A DNA stretch of 64,000 bases from Longimicrobiales bacterium (GTDB lineage Bacteria > Gemmatimonadota > Gemmatimonadetes > Longimicrobiales > Gaopeijiaceae), in NCBI GenBank assembly GCA_965203485.1, contig OZ241892.1, positions 2,496,001-2,560,000 on the forward strand, in the 5' to 3' direction. The position numbers and the translations under genes were made by a program. Each line of letters starts with the position of its first letter. Within the stretch, counting starts at the first letter, position 1. This document shows, piece after piece, positions 8,760-20,059 of the stretch. The notes under the pieces are model-generated. The model was not told the origin of the DNA. It saw nothing but the letters and a program-made list of their open reading frames with translations, and made no database searches.

Positions 8760-11000
8760 ATGCCGGAGAACCGCTTGGCCCAGACTCGTCCCGACTCGCC
8801 GCGCGCCGCCCCGGGTCGCCGGAGCGCGCCACCCCGAGGCGGGCTACGGCCGAGCCATTGGACGCCGGCCGCGGCTTCCATGGTTGTCGCCGTGGCGCTG
8901 GTAGGCGGGGTTGCGTTCCTGGTCGACTTGGCCCCGCGCGTGGAGGCCGACTTCTTCTTTGCGCCGGACGATCCGCAACTTCGCGCCTCGCGGGCGCTGG
9001 CCGAGCGGTATCCGGCGGGTGAAACGCTGATCGTCCGAGCCGAGGCGCCCGACATCGACGCGCCCGGATACGTGGCGCGCGTGGAAGCGCTTGGAGTTGC
9101 GCTGGATTCGCTGCCCGGGGTCGAGAGCGTGTTCTCGGTCGCCAGCGAGAACCGGTCGAGTCCCCTTTGGGGCCGGATCCTGACGCCGCCCGGCGGCCGC
9201 GCGACCAACGTCGTGGCACAACTCGGGCAACACGACGCGGAAGCGTTGGCGGACCGGGTCCGGACCGTGCTCGACGCGCATCGGGGGGCGGACTTCGCGC
9301 TGGCCGCTTCCGGCGTGCCCTTGATCGTGCAGCTGATCCGCCAGGGCTTGGCGCGCGACCTTGCCGTGTTCAGCACGGTCGCCTTCCTGGCGTTCGGGCT
9401 CGTCGCCGGGCTGGTCTACCGAGACCCGCGGGTCGTCGCCGGCACGCTCCTCGCCTGCGTCTCGGCCAGCGCGGCCACGCTGTTGGCAACGGCGGCGGCC
9501 GGCATCGGCGTCGGGCTGCTGACGGCCAACGTCGCCACCATCGTGTTCGTGCTGACCTTGTCGCACACGGTCTTCTTGGCGGCGAACTGGACCGAGGCGC
9601 CGCAACGAGGCGGCGCCCGCCGAAGTCGCGCGGCCGCCGCCGTCGCGCGCACTGCCGCTCCGTCGGCTTGGTGCATGGTCACGACGGCGCTCGGGTTCTC
9701 CAGCTTGCTGCTCGCTCCGGCGCGCCCGCTTCGCGAACTCGGCGCGGCGGGCGCCATCGGGACCGCCATGGCGTTCGCCTGCGCATTCACGATTCTGCCG
9801 GCGTGGCTGGCGGGCGCGCGTGTCCGCTCCTCGGCCGCCGGTCGGCAACTTGCGGCCGCCCGCCTGCCTGCATTCGGCGCGCGCGGACTGGTCCTGCTCG
9901 CGCTCGTGGTCGGCGGAGCGGGCGCGGGCGTTCTTCGTCTGAACACCGATCCCCCCCTGCTCAGCTACTTCGATCCTTCGGGGCCGATACGCCCCGGCCT
10001 GGAGGCGATCGACCGCGAGGGCGGCAGCAGTCCGTTGCTCTTCGCCGTCGGCGGCGCGGACGGCGAGCGCCTGGACAACATGTCCGCCTACGCGCGGCTG
10101 TGGGAGCTGCAGGATTCCCTCGAGGCCGACCCTGCCACCGGCATCGTGCTGTCTCCGGCGCCGTTGCTGGCCCATGCGCGCGAGCTGCCGCTGGCCCGCT
10201 TCCTTCCCGTGTCGCTCTTGCTCGGAATGCTGGAACGCCCCGAGACGGGCGACATCGCCCGCGGCTACTTCCGCGAGGACCGCCGCGAAGTCCTCTACTC
10301 GGTCCGCATGGTCGAGGCGGACAGGACCGAGAACCGCGACACGACGATCGCCCGGCTCGCGGCCCACGCCAACGCCGCCGGCCTCCGGGTCAACGCGACC
10401 GCGGGTCTCTTCGAACTGCAGCGCCACCTTGGCGAACTGATCGCCACGAGCCTCAAGACGGGCATCGGCGGTCTGCTGGGGCTGTTTCTTTTCGTCGGGC
10501 TGGGCGTCGCCCGGAGCGTTCGTGGAGCCGCCGCGATGCTCGTCTGTCTCCTAGCCATCCCGGCCATGGTGCTCGGCGTCTTCGGCCACCTGGGCGTGGC
10601 CGTGGACATCGTCGCGTCCCCCGCCGCGAACGTCGCGCTCGCCATGGGCGTGGACTCGATGATCCACGTCGCGATGCGGGCGCGCCGTGCCCACCCAACT
10701 CCGCCGTCGGCCTCCCGGCGCATCCGTTCGCAACGAGACGGCGGCGTAGACCACGACCGCCCCCGCACCGAAGGCGCGCACGCTTGGACCGACGCCGCCT
10801 CCGCTCTAGCCAAGCCAGTCGCCGCCGCCTGCGCCATCGTCTGCGTCGGCTTCGGCATCTTCGTCCTCTCGGACTTCCCGCCCACCCGCCGCTTCGGGCT
10901 GGCGGTCGTGCTCGGCACGGCGACCGCGTGCTTCGTTGCGCTGTTCGCGTTGCCAACCCTCGTGGAACGCCGCAACGGCCCCGGCCGCGCACGCGGTTAA
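8760..11000 (+). CDS. MMPL/RND-family transporter
   Basis: Two repeats of a periplasmic domain plus TM bundle; MGVDSMIH, TTALGFSSL and SDFPPTRRFG motifs. Start uncertain (8760 or 8880). Confidence 0.85.
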   Translation: MPENRLAQTRPDSPRAAPGRRSAPPRGGLRPSHWTPAAASMVVAVALVGGVAFLVDLAPRVEADFFFAPDDPQLRASRALAERYPAGETLIVRAEAPDIDAPGYVARVEALGVALDSLPGVESVFSVASENRSSPLWGRILTPPGGRATNVVAQLGQHDAEALADRVRTVLDAHRGADFALAASGVPLIVQLIRQGLARDLAVFSTVAFLAFGLVAGLVYRDPRVVAGTLLACVSASAATLLATAAAGIGVGLLTANVATIVFVLTLSHTVFLAANWTEAPQRGGARRSRAAAAVARTAAPSAWCMVTTALGFSSLLLAPARPLRELGAAGAIGTAMAFACAFTILPAWLAGARVRSSAAGRQLAAARLPAFGARGLVLLALVVGGAGAGVLRLNTDPPLLSYFDPSGPIRPGLEAIDREGGSSPLLFAVGGADGERLDNMSAYARLWELQDSLEADPATGIVLSPAPLLAHARELPLARFLPVSLLLGMLERPETGDIARGYFREDRREVLYSVRMVEADRTENRDTTIARLAAHANAAGLRVNATAGLFELQRHLGELIATSLKTGIGGLLGLFLFVGLGVARSVRGAAAMLVCLLAIPAMVLGVFGHLGVAVDIVASPAANVALAMGVDSMIHVAMRARRAHPTPPSASRRIRSQRDGGVDHDRPRTEGAHAWTDAASALAKPVAAACAIVCVGFGIFVLSDFPPTRRFGLAVVLGTATACFVALFALPTLVERRNGPGRARG

Positions 11001-11151: not shown

Positions 11152-11883
11152 CTAGAGCTTCAAGATGTTGTCCTCGCGCCGGTAGTTCTCGACCCCTTTG
11201 CCCATCCAACGCGAGGAGAGGACGATCATGCAGGCCGCGAACAGGATGCCGAGCGCCAGGCAGACGGCGATCCCCAGCGGGGACGCAACCCAAGCGGCGA
11301 TCGCCGCGATCCGTTCCGCGTCGAAGTAGGGCGCGAGGGCAGGTCCGACGATCCGGTCGCCGACGAAGGCCACGACGAAGGACGCGACGAAGAACAACGC
11401 AATGAGTTTTTCTGCGCGAAACCGCAGACACGTCGCCGAGGCCAGCGACGCCAACACCCAGCTGACGCCGCACAAGGCTGTCAAGGCGACGGCGAAGCCC
11501 CCGGCGCCCCACCACTCGAGAGAGGCGAACGGCGCCCACAGGTAGGGGGCGGTCACCAGAACGGCGAACACCGCCAGCGCCGCCAGCGCCGCCACCCGCG
11601 ACGCGCCGTGGACGTCGGCGGTCACGGGCAGGGACTTGAGAAACTCGAGATCGCCCGAGTAGCGGTCCTTCAGGGCGTTCGAGTATCCGAAAGCAGCCGG
11701 TCCCACGAGCGCCGCCGCGATCGCGGCGGCCGACGACGACACGTCCTCCATTATCGCGGTGAGCGCCAGCGGCATCACGATGCCCATGAGGGCGATGCCC
11801 GTGAACGATCTCGCGTGGCGCCGAAGCTCCATCGCTACGAGCCGCCGCAACGCGAGTCTACTGTTCCGCTTGCAGTATCTCAT
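11152..11883 (-). CDS. ABC-2-type permease / immunity-like membrane protein
   Basis: About 6 TM segments and an EFLKSLPVT motif typical of ABC-2 permeases; overlaps the ATPase gene. Confidence 0.75.
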   Translation of the reverse strand: MRYCKRNSRLALRRLVAMELRRHARSFTGIALMGIVMPLALTAIMEDVSSSAAAIAAALVGPAAFGYSNALKDRYSGDLEFLKSLPVTADVHGASRVAALAALAVFAVLVTAPYLWAPFASLEWWGAGGFAVALTALCGVSWVLASLASATCLRFRAEKLIALFFVASFVVAFVGDRIVGPALAPYFDAERIAAIAAWVASPLGIAVCLALGILFAACMIVLSSRWMGKGVENYRREDNILKL

Positions 11884-12574
11884 ACAGAAGAGCATGGAGG
11901 GGTTGGGACGGATCCCGGCTTCTGATCTCGCTCACGGTGCGGTCCGCGACCAAGCGTCCGTTCTTGAGGAACAGCACGCGGTCGGCGATCCGCTCCACGT
12001 CTTCGAGAAGGTGGCTGGAAAACAGCACGAGGCGGTCCCCGCCGGCCGGCGCGCATTCGTCGACGACCTTGAGGAGCTCCCCGCGCATGAGCGGGTCGAT
12101 CGCGGACGTCGGTTCGTCCAGGAGTAGCAGCTTGGGACGGTGCGCCTCGGCCGCCACAAGCGAAAGCTTCACCTTCATGCCCTTGGAGAGCGTGCCCACC
12201 TTGACCCGGGGCGGCACCGCGAGTCGGTCGAGCAGCTCGAACGCGTGCTGTTCGTCCCACGTCGGGAAGAAGTCGGCTAGGAAGCGCAGATGGCCGGCCA
12301 CCGTCATCCATTCGAGCGCCAAGAGGCTCTCCGGCAGGAAGCCGACCGACGCGCGCACACCCGGCATCAACTCGCGGACATCCCGGCCGTCAATGTCGAT
12401 TCGGCCGTCGTAGTGGGACATCTGGCCGGCGACGGCTTTCAAGGTCGTGCTCTTTCCGGCGCCGTTCGCGCCCACGACCGCGATCCGCTCCCCGGCCGAG
12501 AACGCGACGTCCAGGGGGCCGAGCGTGAAGGCGGGATAGCGAACTCCGAATCGCTTGAGCGCTACCGACGGCAT
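11858..12574 (-). CDS. ABC transporter ATP-binding protein
   Basis: Walker A GANGAGKST, signature LSKGM, Walker B LLLLDEPT, H-loop SSH. Confidence 0.95.
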   Translation of the reverse strand: MPSVALKRFGVRYPAFTLGPLDVAFSAGERIAVVGANGAGKSTTLKAVAGQMSHYDGRIDIDGRDVRELMPGVRASVGFLPESLLALEWMTVAGHLRFLADFFPTWDEQHAFELLDRLAVPPRVKVGTLSKGMKVKLSLVAAEAHRPKLLLLDEPTSAIDPLMRGELLKVVDECAPAGGDRLVLFSSHLLEDVERIADRVLFLKNGRLVADRTVSEIRSRDPSQPLHALLYEILQAEQ

Positions 12575-12587
12575 CCGGTTCTCCGGG

Positions 12588-13256
12588 CTAGTTCACCAAG
12601 CTCGCGCGCGCGACCGCGGCCGCCACGACCGCCGCCCACAGTCCCACGGCCAGCGAAGCCGAGCGGCGCAACGACATGGAGAATACCTCCCGCAACGCCA
12701 ACGAAAGGAACACCACCCACGCCAAGTGGGCAAGCGACACGCTCTGGGCGGCCGCCGCCAACAAGGGACGGTCCGGCGAGACCAGGGCAGCCAACCCAAT
12801 CGGACCCGCGAGCGTCTCGCGGCCCCCGAGCGCCACCGTCAAGTGCACGTAGAGCCCCGCGAACACGCCGCGCAACGCCATGAGCGCCTCGCCATAGAGG
12901 AAGACCGACAGCAATGGCCGCAGCCGCGCGCCGGAACTCAGGAAAGCCAATGCCGCCCATGCGAACGCGGCCAGCAAGCCCGCCTTGACCAGCGTCGTCA
13001 CCGGAGCCAGCGCGATCAAGATCCAGAACATCGTCTCCGCCGTGACCGCATCCGCAGCCTCGCCCGAAGCGCCGCCGAAGAAGACCGGCCGCAACGACAG
13101 CAGGGCGCCCACCGACACGACGAAGGCCGCCAACAGCGGCGGCAGCACCGGCTCTCTGCGGCGGATGTCCCGCAAGCTCGGCACCATCAGGCCGAAGAAC
13201 GTCTTCACGCGCGATTCCGGCGCGGACGGCTCGCCGGACACCAAGACGGCGATCAT
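12588..13256 (-). CDS. Yip1-like polytopic membrane protein
   Basis: 222 aa, about 5 TM segments; LRPLLSVFLY, PIGLAAL and LAWVVFLSLALR pattern resembles bacterial Yip1. ATGA overlap with the upstream gene. Confidence 0.65.
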   Translation of the reverse strand: MIAVLVSGEPSAPESRVKTFFGLMVPSLRDIRRREPVLPPLLAAFVVSVGALLSLRPVFFGGASGEAADAVTAETMFWILIALAPVTTLVKAGLLAAFAWAALAFLSSGARLRPLLSVFLYGEALMALRGVFAGLYVHLTVALGGRETLAGPIGLAALVSPDRPLLAAAAQSVSLAHLAWVVFLSLALREVFSMSLRRSASLAVGLWAAVVAAAVARASLVN

Positions 13257-13786
13257 CGCGGCATCCCCACAGCGTCCATGGCCTGCGCGAGTTGCCTCCG
13301 CGTCGACCGTCCAACGCGCACGATCCGGACCGTGTCCGTCCGGTCGGTCCAGTACGTGACCGGCACGTAGCGCACGGCCAGCGCGCGCGCAATGCTGCTG
13401 TCGGCGTCCGCGATCGCGCGGTTGCGCATGGCCGGCGGTATCCACGACATGTCTCCCCGAGCGTCCGGGGCCGCGATCACCCACACGTTGGCCCGGACGC
13501 CGTCTTCGATCATGGCTTCCCAGCGTGCTAGTTGCTCCTTGCAATACGGGCAGGTCGGCGTCGCATACATCAACGCGGACGGCCCCTCGAGGCTGGACTC
13601 CGACCGCCAGTCGTCGCCGCTGCTCGTTCGGCCCGCCAACGCCGGCAACGGCCATGGCGGCTCCGGCCCCGAAGACCGCTGCCCGCCGTCGACCAGCTTG
13701 AACGGCGCGACCACGCACACGGCCACGCCCAGACCAACTGCAAGTGCAATCAACTTCCTCGTTCTTGCCCCGTCCTTGTTCTTCAT
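13253..13786 (-). CDS. Membrane-anchored thioredoxin-like protein (CPYC)
   Basis: N-terminal TM anchor, YATPTCPYC, and the cis-Pro loop VRYVPVTY. Confidence 0.85.
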   Translation of the reverse strand: MKNKDGARTRKLIALAVGLGVAVCVVAPFKLVDGGQRSSGPEPPWPLPALAGRTSSGDDWRSESSLEGPSALMYATPTCPYCKEQLARWEAMIEDGVRANVWVIAAPDARGDMSWIPPAMRNRAIADADSSIARALAVRYVPVTYWTDRTDTVRIVRVGRSTRRQLAQAMDAVGMPR

Positions 13787-13886: not shown

Positions 13887-14123
13887 CTACTTGCTAAGGT
13901 CGCACCTCGCGCATCGCGCGGGGAAGATCAGGCGATAGAACCAGGAGGAGCGACAGGCCGAACAGAAGAGAAGGTCTTCCTCGACCGGCCTGCAGACGAC
14001 CCAGTCGTCTTCGTCTATTTCCTGGGACTGCAACGGTGCGGGCGGGAGGCCCGTAGCGGCAGAGCCGGCCACGGCCGCGGCGAGAACGAAATGCGAGAAC
14101 TTCCATGCTTGCTTGGCTTTCAT
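13887..14123 (-). CDS. Secreted Cys-rich small protein (78 aa)
   Basis: GGAG RBS; MKAKQAWKFSHFVLAAAVAGSAA signal-like leader; mature part contains C, CSAC and CARC. Confidence 0.8.
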   Translation of the reverse strand: MKAKQAWKFSHFVLAAAVAGSAATGLPPAPLQSQEIDEDDWVVCRPVEEDLLFCSACRSSWFYRLIFPARCARCDLSK

Positions 14124-14181: not shown

Positions 14182-14328
14182 CTAGAAGAACGCCGCCTTG
14201 CACGTTCCCACGCACGCCGGGACAATGACTCCGGCCGGCGATATCAACAGCATAGCCAGACCGAGCACGCTGCTGCCGCCCAGGGCGAGGATGGCTGCCG
14301 CGCAGCCTATGCATGCGACTTTGACCAC
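14182..14328 (-). CDS. Hydrophobic CxxC...CxxxC peptide C (48 aa; not in ORF track)
   Basis: AAAGGAG 6 nt before GTG. Translates MVKVACIGCAAAILALGGSSVLGLAMLLISPAGVIVPACVGTCKAAFF, with the same Cys pattern as the two upstream ORFs. Confidence 0.85.
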   Translation of the reverse strand: MVKVACIGCAAAILALGGSSVLGLAMLLISPAGVIVPACVGTCKAAFF

Positions 14329-14380
14329 TGCGAACTCCTTTCTCGTCTTGCACGAGGTTGATGTCTTCGATTGGCATCAG

Positions 14381-14539
14381 TCAGAAGAGACTGGCGCATG
14401 TGGCTACGCAAGCCAGGACCGCGAGGGTCGAGCCCGGAGTCGCGGCGGCCGCGAGCCATGCAGCCGGGCCGGCGGCCGCAAGCCCGATTCCGGCGGCCAC
14501 GCATCCTCCGCACCCCAACACCGCCAGCATCGTCTTCAT
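14381..14539 (-). CDS. Hydrophobic CxxC...CxxxC peptide B (52 aa)
   Basis: MKTMLAVLGCGGCVAAGIGLAAAGPAAWLAAAATPGSTLAVLACVATCASLF; ATGA-coupled to the upstream ORF. Confidence 0.85.
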   Translation of the reverse strand: MKTMLAVLGCGGCVAAGIGLAAAGPAAWLAAAATPGSTLAVLACVATCASLF

Positions 14540-14847
14540 CGGATTGCCCCCACAGCTGCCGCGCATGCGGCCACGCACGTCAGTGCGGTCGCAACCGCAT
14601 GTTTCGGGTTGCGGAGAAACCATCCCCAAACGGGCACGCCGATCATGCTGAGCACGGTCATCCCGGCCCCGACGGCAACGCACGTCAGGCATCCTTGCGT
14701 GGCTCCGAAGCCGCCGCCGCCGTCCTGTGCGCCGACCCCGGGCGGGGCGGTCGGCAACGCCGACGCGGACGCCGGCGCCGCGCCGAACGCGCTTGCGGTT
14801 GCCGTCGCCAGCAGGACGGCAAGCGCGGCGATGCGATGCTTACTCAT
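14536..14847 (-). CDS. CxxC...CxxxC peptide A precursor with Sec-type signal and pro-region (103 aa)
   Basis: AAGGAGGT RBS; signal MSKHRIAALAVLLATATASAFGAAPASA; Gly-rich linker; core CLTC-x34-CVAAC. Confidence 0.85.
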   Translation of the reverse strand: MSKHRIAALAVLLATATASAFGAAPASASALPTAPPGVGAQDGGGGFGATQGCLTCVAVGAGMTVLSMIGVPVWGWFLRNPKHAVATALTCVAACAAAVGAIR

Positions 14848-15691
14848 GTGCTACCTCCTTGTGGAGTGAATGAAAGTCCCCCGCGGCGAAGCGCCGCAGG
14901 AGCGGGGTCCGGCAACGTCCGGCAAGGAGGGTTCCTCGCCGGGCCAGCCCGCGTTGGACATGTCTGTTCGCGTGGAAAAGGCCAAGCCGCCGCGCCCGCC
15001 CCAAGCGCTTCGGCGCCGGACCGCTCGCCGCGCGCCAAGAGGCGACCCCGAGCGCAACCAGCCCCGCGAGCGCCAGAAGGGCGAAGGCGCGGCGGGGACG
15101 GCGGCGGTTGGGGGAGCTGCGCAGGAGCATGGGGCCAGGGGTCGGGGCGGTCGGCTGCAAGTCGTGGAGCAGACGCTAGTCAAACGCCTGGGACGCCTAC
15201 ATAGCTGGATGGGTCCGCTCTCGCAGCGTCCGCGGAGCCGCCGAATCGAGCGAAACGACAAGTCCAGCAAGGCTGTTCGGGCGATGCTCCCACTGGCGGC
15301 GCTCGCGCAGCTTGGCGCCCGCGACGAGGAAGATCTTGCGCAACGCGGTTGCGAACGGCCGATCAGCCGCGGGGCCGCCGCGATGCCGGCGGCGGGATTG
15401 ACCGAGCCCGAACCGGACGCGGACACGGAGCCGCGCTAGGCGTCTCTGCAAACGCGGTGGGCCTGATGCGAATTGATCGGGCCCGAACCGGACGCCGGGG
15501 CCGGGAGGCCGCCCGGACGAACCCGGACGCGTGGCGGCGCGACGGAAAGCCCGCACGGCCGGGAACCGAAGCGCATGCCGCTGCGACGGCGCGCGCACAA
15601 ACCGAAGCCGGAGGCTAGGCGCCAACAAGCGACTGCGCCAGCCTCGGCAGACCTGGAACGCGCGGTCAGGTCGCGAAGCCGCCCGCTTCCG

Positions 15692-16595: not shown

Positions 16596-17741
16596 GTGCC
16601 CCTTCCCGAATCCATCTCCGGCGCGTCCGACGACGGCGTCTACTACCTGCACGGGGCAGACGAGTTCCGCAAGGACCAAGCGGCGAGGCGCCTCGTGGAG
16701 CGGTTCGCCGACGCGGGCACGCGCGACTTCAACCTGGACCGGCTGGACGGCGCCCGGACGACGGTCGAGCAGCTCGCGACGGTCGCGGCCACGCCGCCGA
16801 TGATGGCCGAGCGGCGGGTGGTGCACCTCGTCTCGGCGGAAGCGCTCGCGGGCAGCGCAAAGGCGCGCGCCGTTCTCCTGGACTTGGCCAAGAGTCCGCC
16901 CCCGGGGCTCGTCCTGATCGTGCAGGCGACGGTTCCGGGGCGCTCGACGGCCAAGTTCTACAAGGAGTTGGCGCGGCTCGCGACGACCGCCGAGTTCAAG
17001 GCGATACCGGAGAACGAAGCCCCGGCGTGGCTGGTCACGTGGGCGGCCGAGGAGCTCGAAGCAGTCGTCGAACTCGATGCCGCGAGGGCGCTGGCGGCGG
17101 CGCTGGGATCGAACCTGGGCATGCTGTCGAACGAGGTGCGAAAGCTGGCGGGGATGGTTGCCGACGGCGCGCCGGTGGATCTCGAAGCCGTCCGCGCGGG
17201 AGGATTCGAGATCGCCCGGCAGGATCGCTGGGCTTGGTTCGACGCGGTCGGGCGCCGCCGAATCGCCGAGGCGCTGAAGGGGCTTCCGGTCCTCGTGCGG
17301 CAGGGCGAAGCTCCGATCGCCCTCGTGAGCGGCCTGGCCGCGCATCTCCTGCGCATCGGAGTGGCGGCGGAAGGCGGCGCGAGCGCGTTGAAGGCCGCGT
17401 TGCCGCCGCACCAGAAGTTCCTGGCGAAGCGCTTGGCAAGCCAAGCGCGGCAGTGGAACCGCGCCGACTTGGCGGCCGCGGTCAGGAGGCTGCGACGGCT
17501 CGACCGCCTGCTCAAGGCGAGTTCCCTGCCCGGCGACGGGCTCTTGGAAGAGTGGCTCCACGGGGTGGCGGCCCGCGATGCGCCTGCCCGAGCCGGGCGG
17601 CGCCGGAAAGACCGGATGGCGCAGACGAGCGGCAGGCCGTCGGCGCGACGGAGGACGACCGCGGCCGCGCCGGGCGCCGACGACCGGGAGGAGTCGACGA
17701 CGGGGCGGACGAACTCCCGGCGCCGGGCAACGCGAACGTGA
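16596..17741 (+). CDS. holA: DNA polymerase III subunit delta
   Basis: [37 protein letters not shown] and LDRLLKAS motifs; Arg-rich C-terminal tail. Confidence 0.9.
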
Positions 17742-20059
17742 GATCGGACCAAGCCGGCCCGGGCGAGAGGACGGGCGCCGTCCAGGCCGCGGGCGCCGAA
17801 GTCGCATTGCGGATTTCGGGGATGCACTGCGCCAGCTGCGTGTCCTCCGTGGAGCGCGCTCTGGAGGGAGTGGCCGGGGTGGTCCGGGCGGAAGTCAACC
17901 TCGTGCAGGAGACTGCGAGAGTCCGGATCGCGAGCGCCGCGGAGGGCGTCGCGGCCGCCGGCGAGGCGATGGAAAGGGCGGTCGCGGCGGCGGGATACGA
18001 AGCCGCGGCGCTCGTCGGCGCGCAGGCGGAAGACGAGGCCGCGCGGGCTCGCGACGCCGGCCGCGACGAGGAGGTTCGCGCGCTGCTGCGGCGGTTCAGG
18101 GTCGCCGCGTTGTTCGGCCTGCCCGTGTTCGTCCTCGGCCACTGGGACATGATCCCGTGGCTGACGCCGATGAGCGAAGCGGCGCGGACCGGGGCGTGGC
18201 GCGCGTCCGCGCTGCTCACGGCGCCCGTTCTGCTGTACGCGGGTCGCGGCTTCTTCGCGGGCGCGTGGTCCGCCGGGCGGCGCGGGCGGTTCACGATGGA
18301 TTCGCTGGTGGCGCTGGGAACGGGGGCCGCTTGGCTTCAGTCGATGACGGTGGTCCTCGCGCCCGGCCTGCTGCCCGGCCAGCTGGGCAGGCCCTTCTTC
18401 GAGGCGGTTGCCGCCGTCGTCGCGCTCGTGCTCCTCGGACAGGCGCTGGAGGCCCGCGCCAAGGGACGCACCGCGCGCGCGTTGCGGGAGCTCTTCGCGC
18501 TGGCGCCCGACACGGCCGAGCGCCTTCGCGACGACCGAGACCAAGCGGAGACGCAGACCGTTCCCTTGGCCGAAGTGCGTCCCGGCGATCTCCTGCTGGT
18601 GCGCCCCGGCGGGCGCGTGCCGCTGGACGGCGTCGTCCGGTCGGGCGCAAGCGAAGTGGACGAGTCCATGCTCACCGGCGAGAGCTTGCCCGTCGCGAAG
18701 GCGGCGGGCGACGCGGTGACCGGCGGCTCGGTCAACGGCGCCGGCGCCCTGGTCGTGGAGGTCGTCCGCGTGGGAGAAGACACCGTTCTGGCTCGCATCG
18801 TGGACATGGTGAGGCGAGCCCAAGCCGCGAAGCCGCCGGTCCAGCGAACGGTGGACGCCGTGGCCGGCTGGTTCGTGCCGTCGGTCGTGGTGGTCGCGGC
18901 CGCCACGTTCGCGGCGTGGGCCGCGTGGGGACCCGAGCCGCGCCTGAACTTCGCCGTGGCGACCGCCGTGTCCGTCCTGGTCGTCGCTTGCCCGTGCGCG
19001 ATGGGACTCGCCACGCCCCTCTCGGTCATGATCGCGATCGGCCAAGCGGCCCGGCGCGGCGTATTGATCCGCGACGGCGGCGCACTGCAGCGGGCCCGGC
19101 GCGTGGACACGGTCCTCCTGGACAAGACCGGCACCGTCACCGAAGGCCGCCCCGCCGTGGCGAGCGCGCACCCGGGCCCGGCCCTCTCGGAGGCCGAAAT
19201 GCTCGCATGGGCGGCCAGCGCCGAGGCCGCGTCCGAGCACCCCGTCGCCCACGCGATCGTTCGGTACGCCGCCGAGCTGGGGACGCCGCTCCGTCCCGCC
19301 GAGCGCTTCGCCGCCCACCCCGGCCTTGGGGCTTCGGCGATCGTCGAGGGGAAACGCGTCCTGGTGGGGTCGGCCGCGTTTCTGGAAGGCGCGGGCGTGA
19401 AGTTGGAGGCGGCGGCGGCCACGCTGGCCGGTTTGGCGGAAGCGGGGCTGACGGCGGTGCTCGCGGCCGTGAACGGGAACCTGGTGGGCGTGCTCGGAGT
19501 GGAGGACCGCGTCCGGCCCGAAGCCGCGGCCGCCGTTCGGCGCCTCCAAGACCGCGGCATCGAGGTGCGGATGGCGACCGGCGACGAAGAGGGCCCGGCC
19601 CTGCGCGCGGCCCGGAGGGTTGGGATCGAGCGGGTGACGGCGAGGGCCTCCCCTGCGGAGAAGGCGGATCTCGTGGCCGGTTTGCGCGAGCGCGGGCGCG
19701 TCGTGGCGATGATCGGCGACGGCATCAACGACGGGCCGGCGCTCGCCCGGGCCGACGTGGGCATCGCCATGGGCGGCGGGACCGACGTGGCGCGCGAAGC
19801 GGGCGACGTCGTGCTGCTGGGCAACTCGCTGCGGGGAGCCGCGACGCTGCTGGGCCTGTCGCGCGCGGCAACGCGGAACATCGCGCAGAACTTGGTGGGA
19901 GCCTTCGCCTACAACGTCGTGGCGATTCCGGTGGCCGCCGGTCTGCTCTACCCGTGGACGGGCCTTCTGTTGTCGCCCGCCATCGCGGGCGCGGCCATGG
20001 CGCTCAGCTCGGTGACCGTCGTCGCCAACGCCAACCGCCTACGCCGCTGGCGGGGCTAG
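17738..20059 (+). CDS. copA: Cu(I)-translocating P1B-type ATPase
   Basis: GMHCASC metal-binding domain, TGES, CPC, DKTGT, GDGIND, YN and MALSS. Confidence 0.93.

Follow-up and report, generated by a model that had tools for sequence, protein, structure and literature searches.

A derived gene cluster for small four-cysteine peptides in Gemmatimonadota, possibly a two-peptide bacteriocin turning leaderless

Peptide genes and their neighbours in the window

The window (the whole stretch of DNA analysed, 64,000 nucleotides of contig OZ241892.1 from a Longimicrobiales bacterium, positions 2,496,001 to 2,560,000) was found to carry an operon on its minus strand in the order A, B, C, D, thioredoxin-fold protein (CPYC), Yip1 protein, ABC ATPase and ABC-2 permease; the window's genome is referred to as G000 and the other genomes of the same genus as G001 and G002. 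Peptide A (14536..14847, minus strand; 103 aa; Cys 53/56/91/95; CxxC-x34-CxxxC) begins with a signal-peptide-like N-terminus followed by a Gly-rich pro-segment, both as originally predicted, and ends in a cationic amphipathic core (about +3). Peptide B (14381..14539, minus strand; 52 aa; Cys 10/13/44/48) is leaderless and of the spacer-30 class, its start overlapping the stop of A, and has a net charge of +1 and one Trp. Peptide C (14182..14328, minus strand; 48 aa; Cys 6/9/39/43), leaderless and of the spacer-28/29 class, has a GTG start preceded by an AAGGAG ribosome site, a net charge of +2 and no Trp. B and C contain four Cys each, with 9 and 5 residues, respectively, ahead of Cys1, and GC3 was 0.79 for each of A, B and C. 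The three genes that the original prediction had joined by the motif C-x2-C-x(34/30/29)-C-x3-C (in A, B and C, respectively) were thus confirmed, with the spacers and pre-Cys residues that it had given.

The 48-aa frame of C was recovered once the ORF limit was set to 25 aa, and orthologues of 49 aa are annotated as genes elsewhere. For B, an upstream ATG would give a 103-aa ORF, which is a mis-call; the start at 14539 was assigned from the identical starts in G001 and G002. Assembly error is an unlikely cause of the short forms, as contigs from three runs (representing two samples of a single study, one run possibly being the source of the window) agreed in every letter between positions 11000 and 15800. 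A looser form of the motif matched five times in the six frames of the window, namely in A, B, C and in two Arg/Pro-rich off-frame translations, and a genome-wide search for a stop-proximal CxxC-x(27-36)-CxxxC gave four matches, the hydrophobic ones being A, B and C only. Orthologues of A were found in G001 (42% identity) and as P0101, B was 67–71% identical to its orthologues in G001 and G002, and the orthologue of C was leaderless in G001 and leader-bearing in G002. B and C are the conserved pair and A is a third peptide of close relatives only, which corrects the original prediction, where the three stood as equals.

Peptide D (13887..14123, minus strand; 78 aa) has a signal-peptide-like N-terminus, a polar core and five Cys (C-x9-CxxC-x13-CxxC), and is a candidate further precursor or immunity peptide; one orthologue was found in G001 and two in G002, with four Cys invariant in 4/4 sequences. 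The two G002 copies form a tandem duplicate (L017, 10606-10036; 44/73 residues identical). None of A, B, C and D had a meaningful match in Pfam or NCBIfam, D drawing faint zinc-ribbon matches only from Pfam. The membrane-anchored thioredoxin-fold oxidoreductase (13253..13786, minus strand; CPYC, Val-Pro loop) gave weak matches to Thioredoxin_2, AhpC-TSA and DsbG, all below cut-off. It is followed by the Yip1-domain membrane protein (12588..13256, minus strand; PF04893, E 8.8e-5, below the gathering score), the ABC transporter ATPase (11858..12574, minus strand; PF00005 over cut-off; among NCBIfam rows PmtA was best at E 1.3e-36, well under the cut-off set for it) and the ABC-2-type permease (11152..11895, minus strand, start codon uncertain; PF13346, E 0.011, below cut-off). 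The gene set is bacteriocin-like, which supports the original prediction, though the oxidoreductase, peptide D and the remnant of a C39 gene next to A had been overlooked there. Upstream of the cluster an AhpC/TSA-like gene (16330-15692, minus strand) carries an in-frame TGA in its W-x-P-H-C site; with the TGA as candidate selenocysteine one open frame with UxxC results, and a tRNA-Sec is present in the genome. A gene for a heavy-metal P-type ATPase, CopA-like by eye (GMHCASC, CPC, DKTGT), lies at about 17580-20059 on the plus strand, about 3 kb from the cluster.

The peptide family and its gene cluster in Gemmatimonadota

A DNA search of 41 genomes detected the locus in the two other genomes of the genus and parts of it in two further genomes of the family. 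A core profile matched 17/401 genomes of the phylum, and cluster peptides were present in 14/15 newly retrieved phylum genomes (one of the 14 read in part); locus L058 (G174), without a peptide or cluster gene, was discarded as a chance match. When 1.84 billion representatives were searched with a profile, 172 matched at E up to 0.001 (clusters at 50% identity), which makes the family sizeable, its shortest members lying under ordinary ORF limits. Among the 150 homologues listed (of the 172 matches, six query sequences included), 149 had the motif with exactly four core Cys, an invariance that is partly circular since the profile was built from four-Cys sequences and six of the 150 rows were queries; within this limit the Cys conservation on which the original prediction had staked itself was upheld. 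The lone exception is a B gene interrupted by an insertion (L076). Spacer lengths among the listed homologues were mostly 28 (59) or 30 (64), giving two classes, which are homologous to each other (hhalign probability 99). Mature cores had a mean charge of -0.4, a GRAVY of 1.3 and 17–18% Gly, and were without conserved His, Met or acidic ligands; GxxxG, a helix-packing motif of two-peptide bacteriocins, occurred in 45/77 B-class and 47/71 C-class cores listed, a frequency to be read against this Gly content, and B and C of the window have small-residue variants of it only.

The family apparently is undescribed and has no Pfam or NCBIfam match: the 77 B-class members had no meaningful match in Pfam, the 71 C-class members none in NCBIfam, and the bacteriocin models of both collections gave no sequence match to the family. 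PDB sequence profiles gave nothing below E 0.09 and the ESM Atlas nothing above 0.82 for A or P0007; a search with A alone returned A only, longer or fused forms were not found in a search of weak power, and plasmids and viral contigs gave no family match. In the literature covered, with few subscription journals in it, no description of the cluster was found, and supplements (PMC11316326, bacteriocin-mining papers) could list members; the bacteriocin genes that are reported in Gemmatimonadota are of other types in the available part of the source (PMC11316326).

For the gene neighbourhood, a pattern scan with one genome per species gave 35 loci, of which 31 bear titles of Gemmatimonadota or its subgroups; the pattern was drawn from the same cluster proteins, so the true range may be wider, and the peptide profiles used in this survey included peptides of some of the surveyed loci. 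In 30/35 loci, which is 30/31 of the Gemmatimonadota C39 loci, a C-class gene follows one of the B class, and the four C39 loci from outside Gemmatimonadota had no peptides. Yip1 was found in 30, ABC in 31 and thioredoxin in 29 of the 35 loci, and a homologue of the ABC-2-type permease clusters in 27/31. The fixed cluster thus consists of a standalone membrane-anchored C39 peptidase, the B/C pair, extra precursors (0-4 per locus, fast-changing), an anchored CxxC oxidoreductase, Yip1 and an ABC transporter. Its chromosomal position is stable and flanking genes are common to many loci; neighbourhood clustering gave no conserved outer-membrane exit, the flanking clusters being without annotation. 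In metagenome scans with the oxidoreductase, the first gave no relative and the second five weak partial matches.

Several loci vary in their details. In L061-L079, L085 and L090 the stretch between C and the oxidoreductase contains as many as four additional precursors, which have two to four Cys and a V-x-G-G-Q motif and are possibly a cassette of variable peptides, and in L075 (6520-7210) two additional Cys precursors with leaders are placed between C39 and B, not after C. In L076 (6523-9452) a truncated B is followed by an opposite-strand insertion in which, from the translations, one ORF resembles a transposase, another a DNA methylase, and a nuclease is possible; owing to this insertion L076 is the sole Gemmatimonadota C39 locus without an intact B. 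In L069 (8350-10660) the distance from Yip1 to the ABC gene is about 2 kb longer than usual and the frame of the oxidoreductase stops early, perhaps through another insertion.

The relatives' C39 enzyme scored over the PF03412 cut-off (83 and 73 bits vs 22), has a hydrophobic segment at its N-terminus and keeps Q65, C71, H145 and D162 in 16/16 sequences; PF03412 and the catalytic Cys, His and Asp are thus present in the relatives' enzyme and lacking in the window's remnant. Among the matches listed, 129/144 leader-bearing homologues showed a basic n-region and a hydrophobic h-region in a simple test, and none of the 144 had a twin-arginine motif. The motif [VILAT]-x-G-x-G was located shortly before Cys1 in 113/144, with the second Gly 7 residues before Cys1 in 85; R, A, Q or T takes the canonical -1 position in place of G/A/S, which leaves the cut site uncertain. 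The oxidoreductase has a CxxC and an N-terminal hydrophobic segment in 32/33 loci examined, CxHC/CxYC-type centres and, in all 19 loci where the pattern located the loop, a Val-Pro loop; these centres and the Val-Pro loop we take to be signatures of a DsbA-like oxidase. VKOR genes were found in 3/3 genus genomes, and DsbB was not found in these three.

A role of the four Cys in binding metal (Cu, Zn, Hg), with the peptides as membrane carriers or sinks, is very improbable. It would suit the CxxC pairs in a hydrophobic hairpin, the synthesis of leaderless peptides in the reducing cytoplasm, the faint zinc-ribbon matches of D and the putative P-type ATPase gene (read from its translation) nearby on the other strand, but it sits badly with cores that have no conserved metal ligands besides Cys and with ancestral precursors that have a signal peptide, a protease motif and a dedicated anchored oxidoreductase (CxHC/CxYC).

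Loss of leaders and of the C39 gene

Next to A, the window retains a C39 peptidase remnant (14853..15130, minus strand) in which the 5' membrane-anchor part and the 3' end are kept and about 330 nt of the catalytic core are deleted. Compared with the intact G002 gene at the same place, the 3' end was 73% identical over 131 nt and the N-terminal part 44% (tblastx), and the global alignment scored 84.5 vs a shuffle maximum of 48.7; a search of G000 for PF03412 or the cluster C39 gave no match. The G001 remnant did not beat its shuffles against the G002 C39 (30.0 vs a maximum of 32.5), and the 3' end of the G001 site matches that of the window. Just ahead of the ribosome site of A a GC-rich stem-loop with a T-rich tail (14902-14878, minus strand) is kept in G001 and G002 despite the decay of the surrounding C39 frame; six sites of this kind were found vs 3.4 expected, and the stem-loop was dropped as a conserved element, the three sequences showing no compensatory change.

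In G002 the C39 is intact, C bears a leader, B has none and A is reduced to a 43-aa remnant free of Cys, whereas G000 and G001 have A, leaderless B and leaderless C without C39; changes at particular Cys codons of the A remnant in G002 were rejected as a finding, the alignment being too gapped. The B leader was present in 29/32 loci and absent only within the window's genus. For C, 29/33 passed the leader test, two more fell just under it with the Gly motif kept, and only G000 and G001 were without a leader. In a tree of the ABC protein from 31 loci (midpoint root; L067 and L076 left out), G000 and G001 paired (support 100), then joined the G002-type locus (support 100), inside leader-bearing relatives. 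Since B and C of the relatives carry a signal peptide and a V-x-G-x-G leader beside a standalone C39, the leaderless state is derived and the ABC/Yip1 unit was there before the leaders were lost, a background that the original prediction had missed. The tree and the leader distribution place the loss of the C leader and of C39 on the same branch, which is one event and not a statistical correlation. As read from the sequences, the order within the genus appears to be that the B leader was lost first and that the G000/G001 lineage then lost the C leader and the C39 gene. The leaderless starts lie 5-9 residues before Cys1 and bracket the presumed mature start, so that B and C would begin at the processed N-terminus.

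Leaderless B is under purifying selection, with pN/pS of 0.36, 0.48 and 0.36 in three pairs that are all leaderless. For C, pN/pS was 0.36 (G000-G002), 0.64 and 0.91 (G000-G001; CI 0.58-1.45; 48 codons), the last being the sole pair with both copies of C leaderless; the original prediction was to fall if the 48-aa frame had a dN/dS near 1, and this was the case in one of the three pairs and not in the other two. A (0.70, CI 0.52-0.95) and D (0.55-0.88) were weakly constrained, and values for the oxidoreductase (0.47-0.52) and ABC (0.24-0.34) were lower. Distances of B and C were correlated (r 0.71, partial 0.57), which is not evidence of co-evolution, since such a correlation is common to kin. 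From the C39 remnant, the value of 0.91, the reduction of A to a remnant in G002 and the broken B of L076, which indicate that parts are easily lost, it might be argued that the system is decaying in the window's genome and that leaderless B and C are leftovers no longer exported. This is improbable, as the frames of B, C, D, the oxidoreductase, Yip1, ABC and the permease have all stayed open in both G000 and G001 at dS 0.6-1.0, about half the length of the C39 remnant is gone, and leaderless B is constrained. The four Cys codons are all kept at pS near 0.5 (chance about 0.4%, a hand estimate), and the frame and all four Cys are kept in six leaderless C proteins (that of the window and five others) and in further leaderless B proteins; the conservation in the six C proteins, set against the loss of half the C39 remnant, disfavours neutrality of leaderless C.

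Predicted structure, mode of action and relation to known systems

With the family alignment, AF2 placed helices at 2-23, 25-33 and 37-51 of B (pLDDT 68) and at 2-17, 21-29 and 31-47 of C (pLDDT 84), in line with the original prediction of helical peptides. In C the register sums are 9+39=48 and 6+43=49, with helix ends 17+31=48, and in B 13+44=57 and 10+48=58, with helix ends 23+37=60; by this arithmetic on predicted helices, which is not a measurement of distances, the register of the first and last helix would fit antiparallel packing with nested C1-C4 and C2-C3 disulfides. Foldseek gave no match, and what VIA-align listed were generic helical segments; neither model had a saposin or bacteriocin among its best 50, though such folds may still apply. 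The best structural matches were unrelated helical segments (Z 5.1, rmsd 2.4, 44 aligned; Z 6.1, rmsd 2.2, 52 aligned).

Of the nested arrangement originally predicted, the disulfide pairing is thus compatible with the models, while its saposin or AS-48 framing was not supported. Saposin-like proteins have six conserved Cys in three disulfides. The family has four in 149/149 cores listed, three predicted helices and near-neutral cores. Circular bacteriocins need DUF95 and have no disulfides (PMC6131525), whereas the peptides here have four invariant Cys, with no sign of head-to-tail cyclisation and, in contrast to AS-48, no DUF95 gene in the cluster: DUF95/SpoIIM was found in none of the eight cluster proteins, and the sole G000 copy lies about 205 kb away. 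What is shared with NK-lysin and AS-48 is a helical, membrane-compatible peptide whose N- and C-terminal helices are probably tied. An A-B-C heterotrimer of three equivalent saposin-like or pseudo-circular lytic peptides is accordingly hard to credit; the common Cys motif, the helical prediction, the Yip1/ABC neighbourhood and nested staples, which would tie the N- to the C-terminal helix, speak for it, and against it stand the absence of A from the non-genus loci examined, its remnant state in G002, the three predicted helices vs four or five in the saposin fold (PMC6131525) and, again, the missing DUF95 gene.

The reading we lean towards, with some reserve, is that the locus is a derived Gemmatimonadota cluster for a gallocin-like two-peptide bacteriocin with two disulfides per peptide, matured outside the cytoplasm and turning leaderless; disulfides, export and killing by A, B and C are inferred here from gene content, order and motifs. 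The products would be small hydrophobic helical peptides, each stapled by two disulfides, and B and C, with variable extras like A and D, would act jointly on the membranes of competitor bacteria. In the ancestral system a signal peptide (Sec export) would carry the precursor through the inner membrane, the anchored DsbA-like oxidoreductase would close C1-C4 and C2-C3, the standalone anchored C39 would cut at V-x-G-x-G on the outer side of the inner membrane, and the Yip1 and ABC unit would detach the peptides from the membrane, shield the producer, or both. In G000 and G001, B and C would need no cutting; as they have no signal peptide and no C39 is left, the ABC/Yip1 unit is the sole dedicated exit in the locus and by elimination their probable route, as originally predicted, while A and D in the window's genome may still use their signal peptides. 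The value of 0.91 for C in the leaderless pair and the near-neutral cores, unlike those of most lytic peptides, count against this reading, as do the weak constraint on A and D, the variable -1 residue and the failure of neighbourhood clustering to reveal a conserved outer-membrane exit.

The locus seems to work most like gallocin A and its subgroup. In gallocin A the peptides are weakly charged hairpins closed by a disulfide; it requires both of them as well as a thioredoxin-like protein, and it makes vesicles permeable (PMC10100652). The likeness lies in two adjacent peptide genes, weakly charged helical hairpins of 42-60 aa with Cys near both ends and a thioredoxin-like accessory (PMC10100652), features of the subgroup that were found or, for the hairpins, predicted here. 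The peptides here differ from gallocin A in having four Cys instead of two and a Gram-negative producer, and the locus in its long leaders with signal peptide, separate anchored C39 in place of an exporter domain, Yip1 and ABC-2 unit and leaderless forms. Class IIb two-peptide bacteriocins likewise have two different peptide genes adjacent in an operon, but their 15-30 aa double-glycine leaders are cut by a dedicated C39-ABC exporter (PMC2850506), whereas the relatives' leaders are longer and include a signal peptide, their C39 is standalone and the window has no C39. Thermophilin 9 with BlpG appears as a reference title in PMC11564875.

The peptide family is probably antibacterial. An alternative that we regard as unlikely is that the peptides are exported and disulfide-bonded without killing, as signals, membrane-shaping or surface peptides, or in action on a eukaryotic host. 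The near-neutral, very hydrophobic cores (GRAVY 1.3) and the stable chromosomal position with shared flanks and no plasmid or viral match would suit it, as would the service of FapD, a periplasmic standalone C39, in amyloid secretion (PMC5557850). A fixed pair with 0-4 fast-changing precursors beside Yip1, ABC and thioredoxin is, however, the layout of a bacteriocin locus, and gallocin A is weakly charged as well (PMC10100652).

The maturation route of the family appears unusual, judging from the sequences, and is seen in the window in a leaderless, protease-less state. Whether it is an undescribed pathway, in which precursors exported by Sec are matured by a standalone periplasmic C39 and oxidised by a DsbA-like enzyme of their own to give doubly stapled two-peptide hairpins, and which turned stepwise into a working leaderless system, with ABC-Yip1 taking over export and oxidation following afterwards, is doubtful but conceivable. 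The C39 resembles that of PCATs acting on double-glycine leaders in its intact catalytic residues, a hydrophobic -4 and Gly at -2 (PMC10885120), and differs in being standalone with an N-terminal hydrophobic segment, in the variable -1 and in precursors with an additional signal peptide. FapD of Pseudomonas amyloid secretion is likewise a standalone C39 outside the cytoplasm with Sec-exported substrates (PMC5557850), but its target is unclear in that paper and its products are amyloid fibres, whereas here a candidate cut motif lies directly before a small disulfide core. The relatives would thus supply a standalone extracytoplasmic C39 with an obvious substrate set for this class of enzyme.

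The three species of the genus represent two successive states of leader loss and the relatives the fully leadered state, a series in which the origin of leaderless bacteriocins can be tested, as can the role of Yip1 (export or immunity); the unmodified peptides of 48-52 aa are open to direct synthesis. The loss of a processing enzyme together with leaders may show how leader-free peptide antibiotics arise. If the stepwise conversion into a working leaderless system is real, leader-dependent bacteriocins would have a direct path to leaderless ones. Clusters for leaderless and for circular bacteriocins contain Yip1 proteins (PMC11580447, PMC10707071), and B and C share with leaderless bacteriocins (aureocin A53, lacticin Q, bawcin) a length of about 50 aa, a helical character, the absence of a leader and Yip1 and ABC genes nearby (PMC11580447, PMC10707071). 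Those of the aureocin A53 type are highly cationic, Trp-rich and free of disulfides (PMC6131525, PMC11580447), whereas B and C, at +1 and +2 and with one Trp and none, have four Cys each and descend from leader-bearing ancestors.
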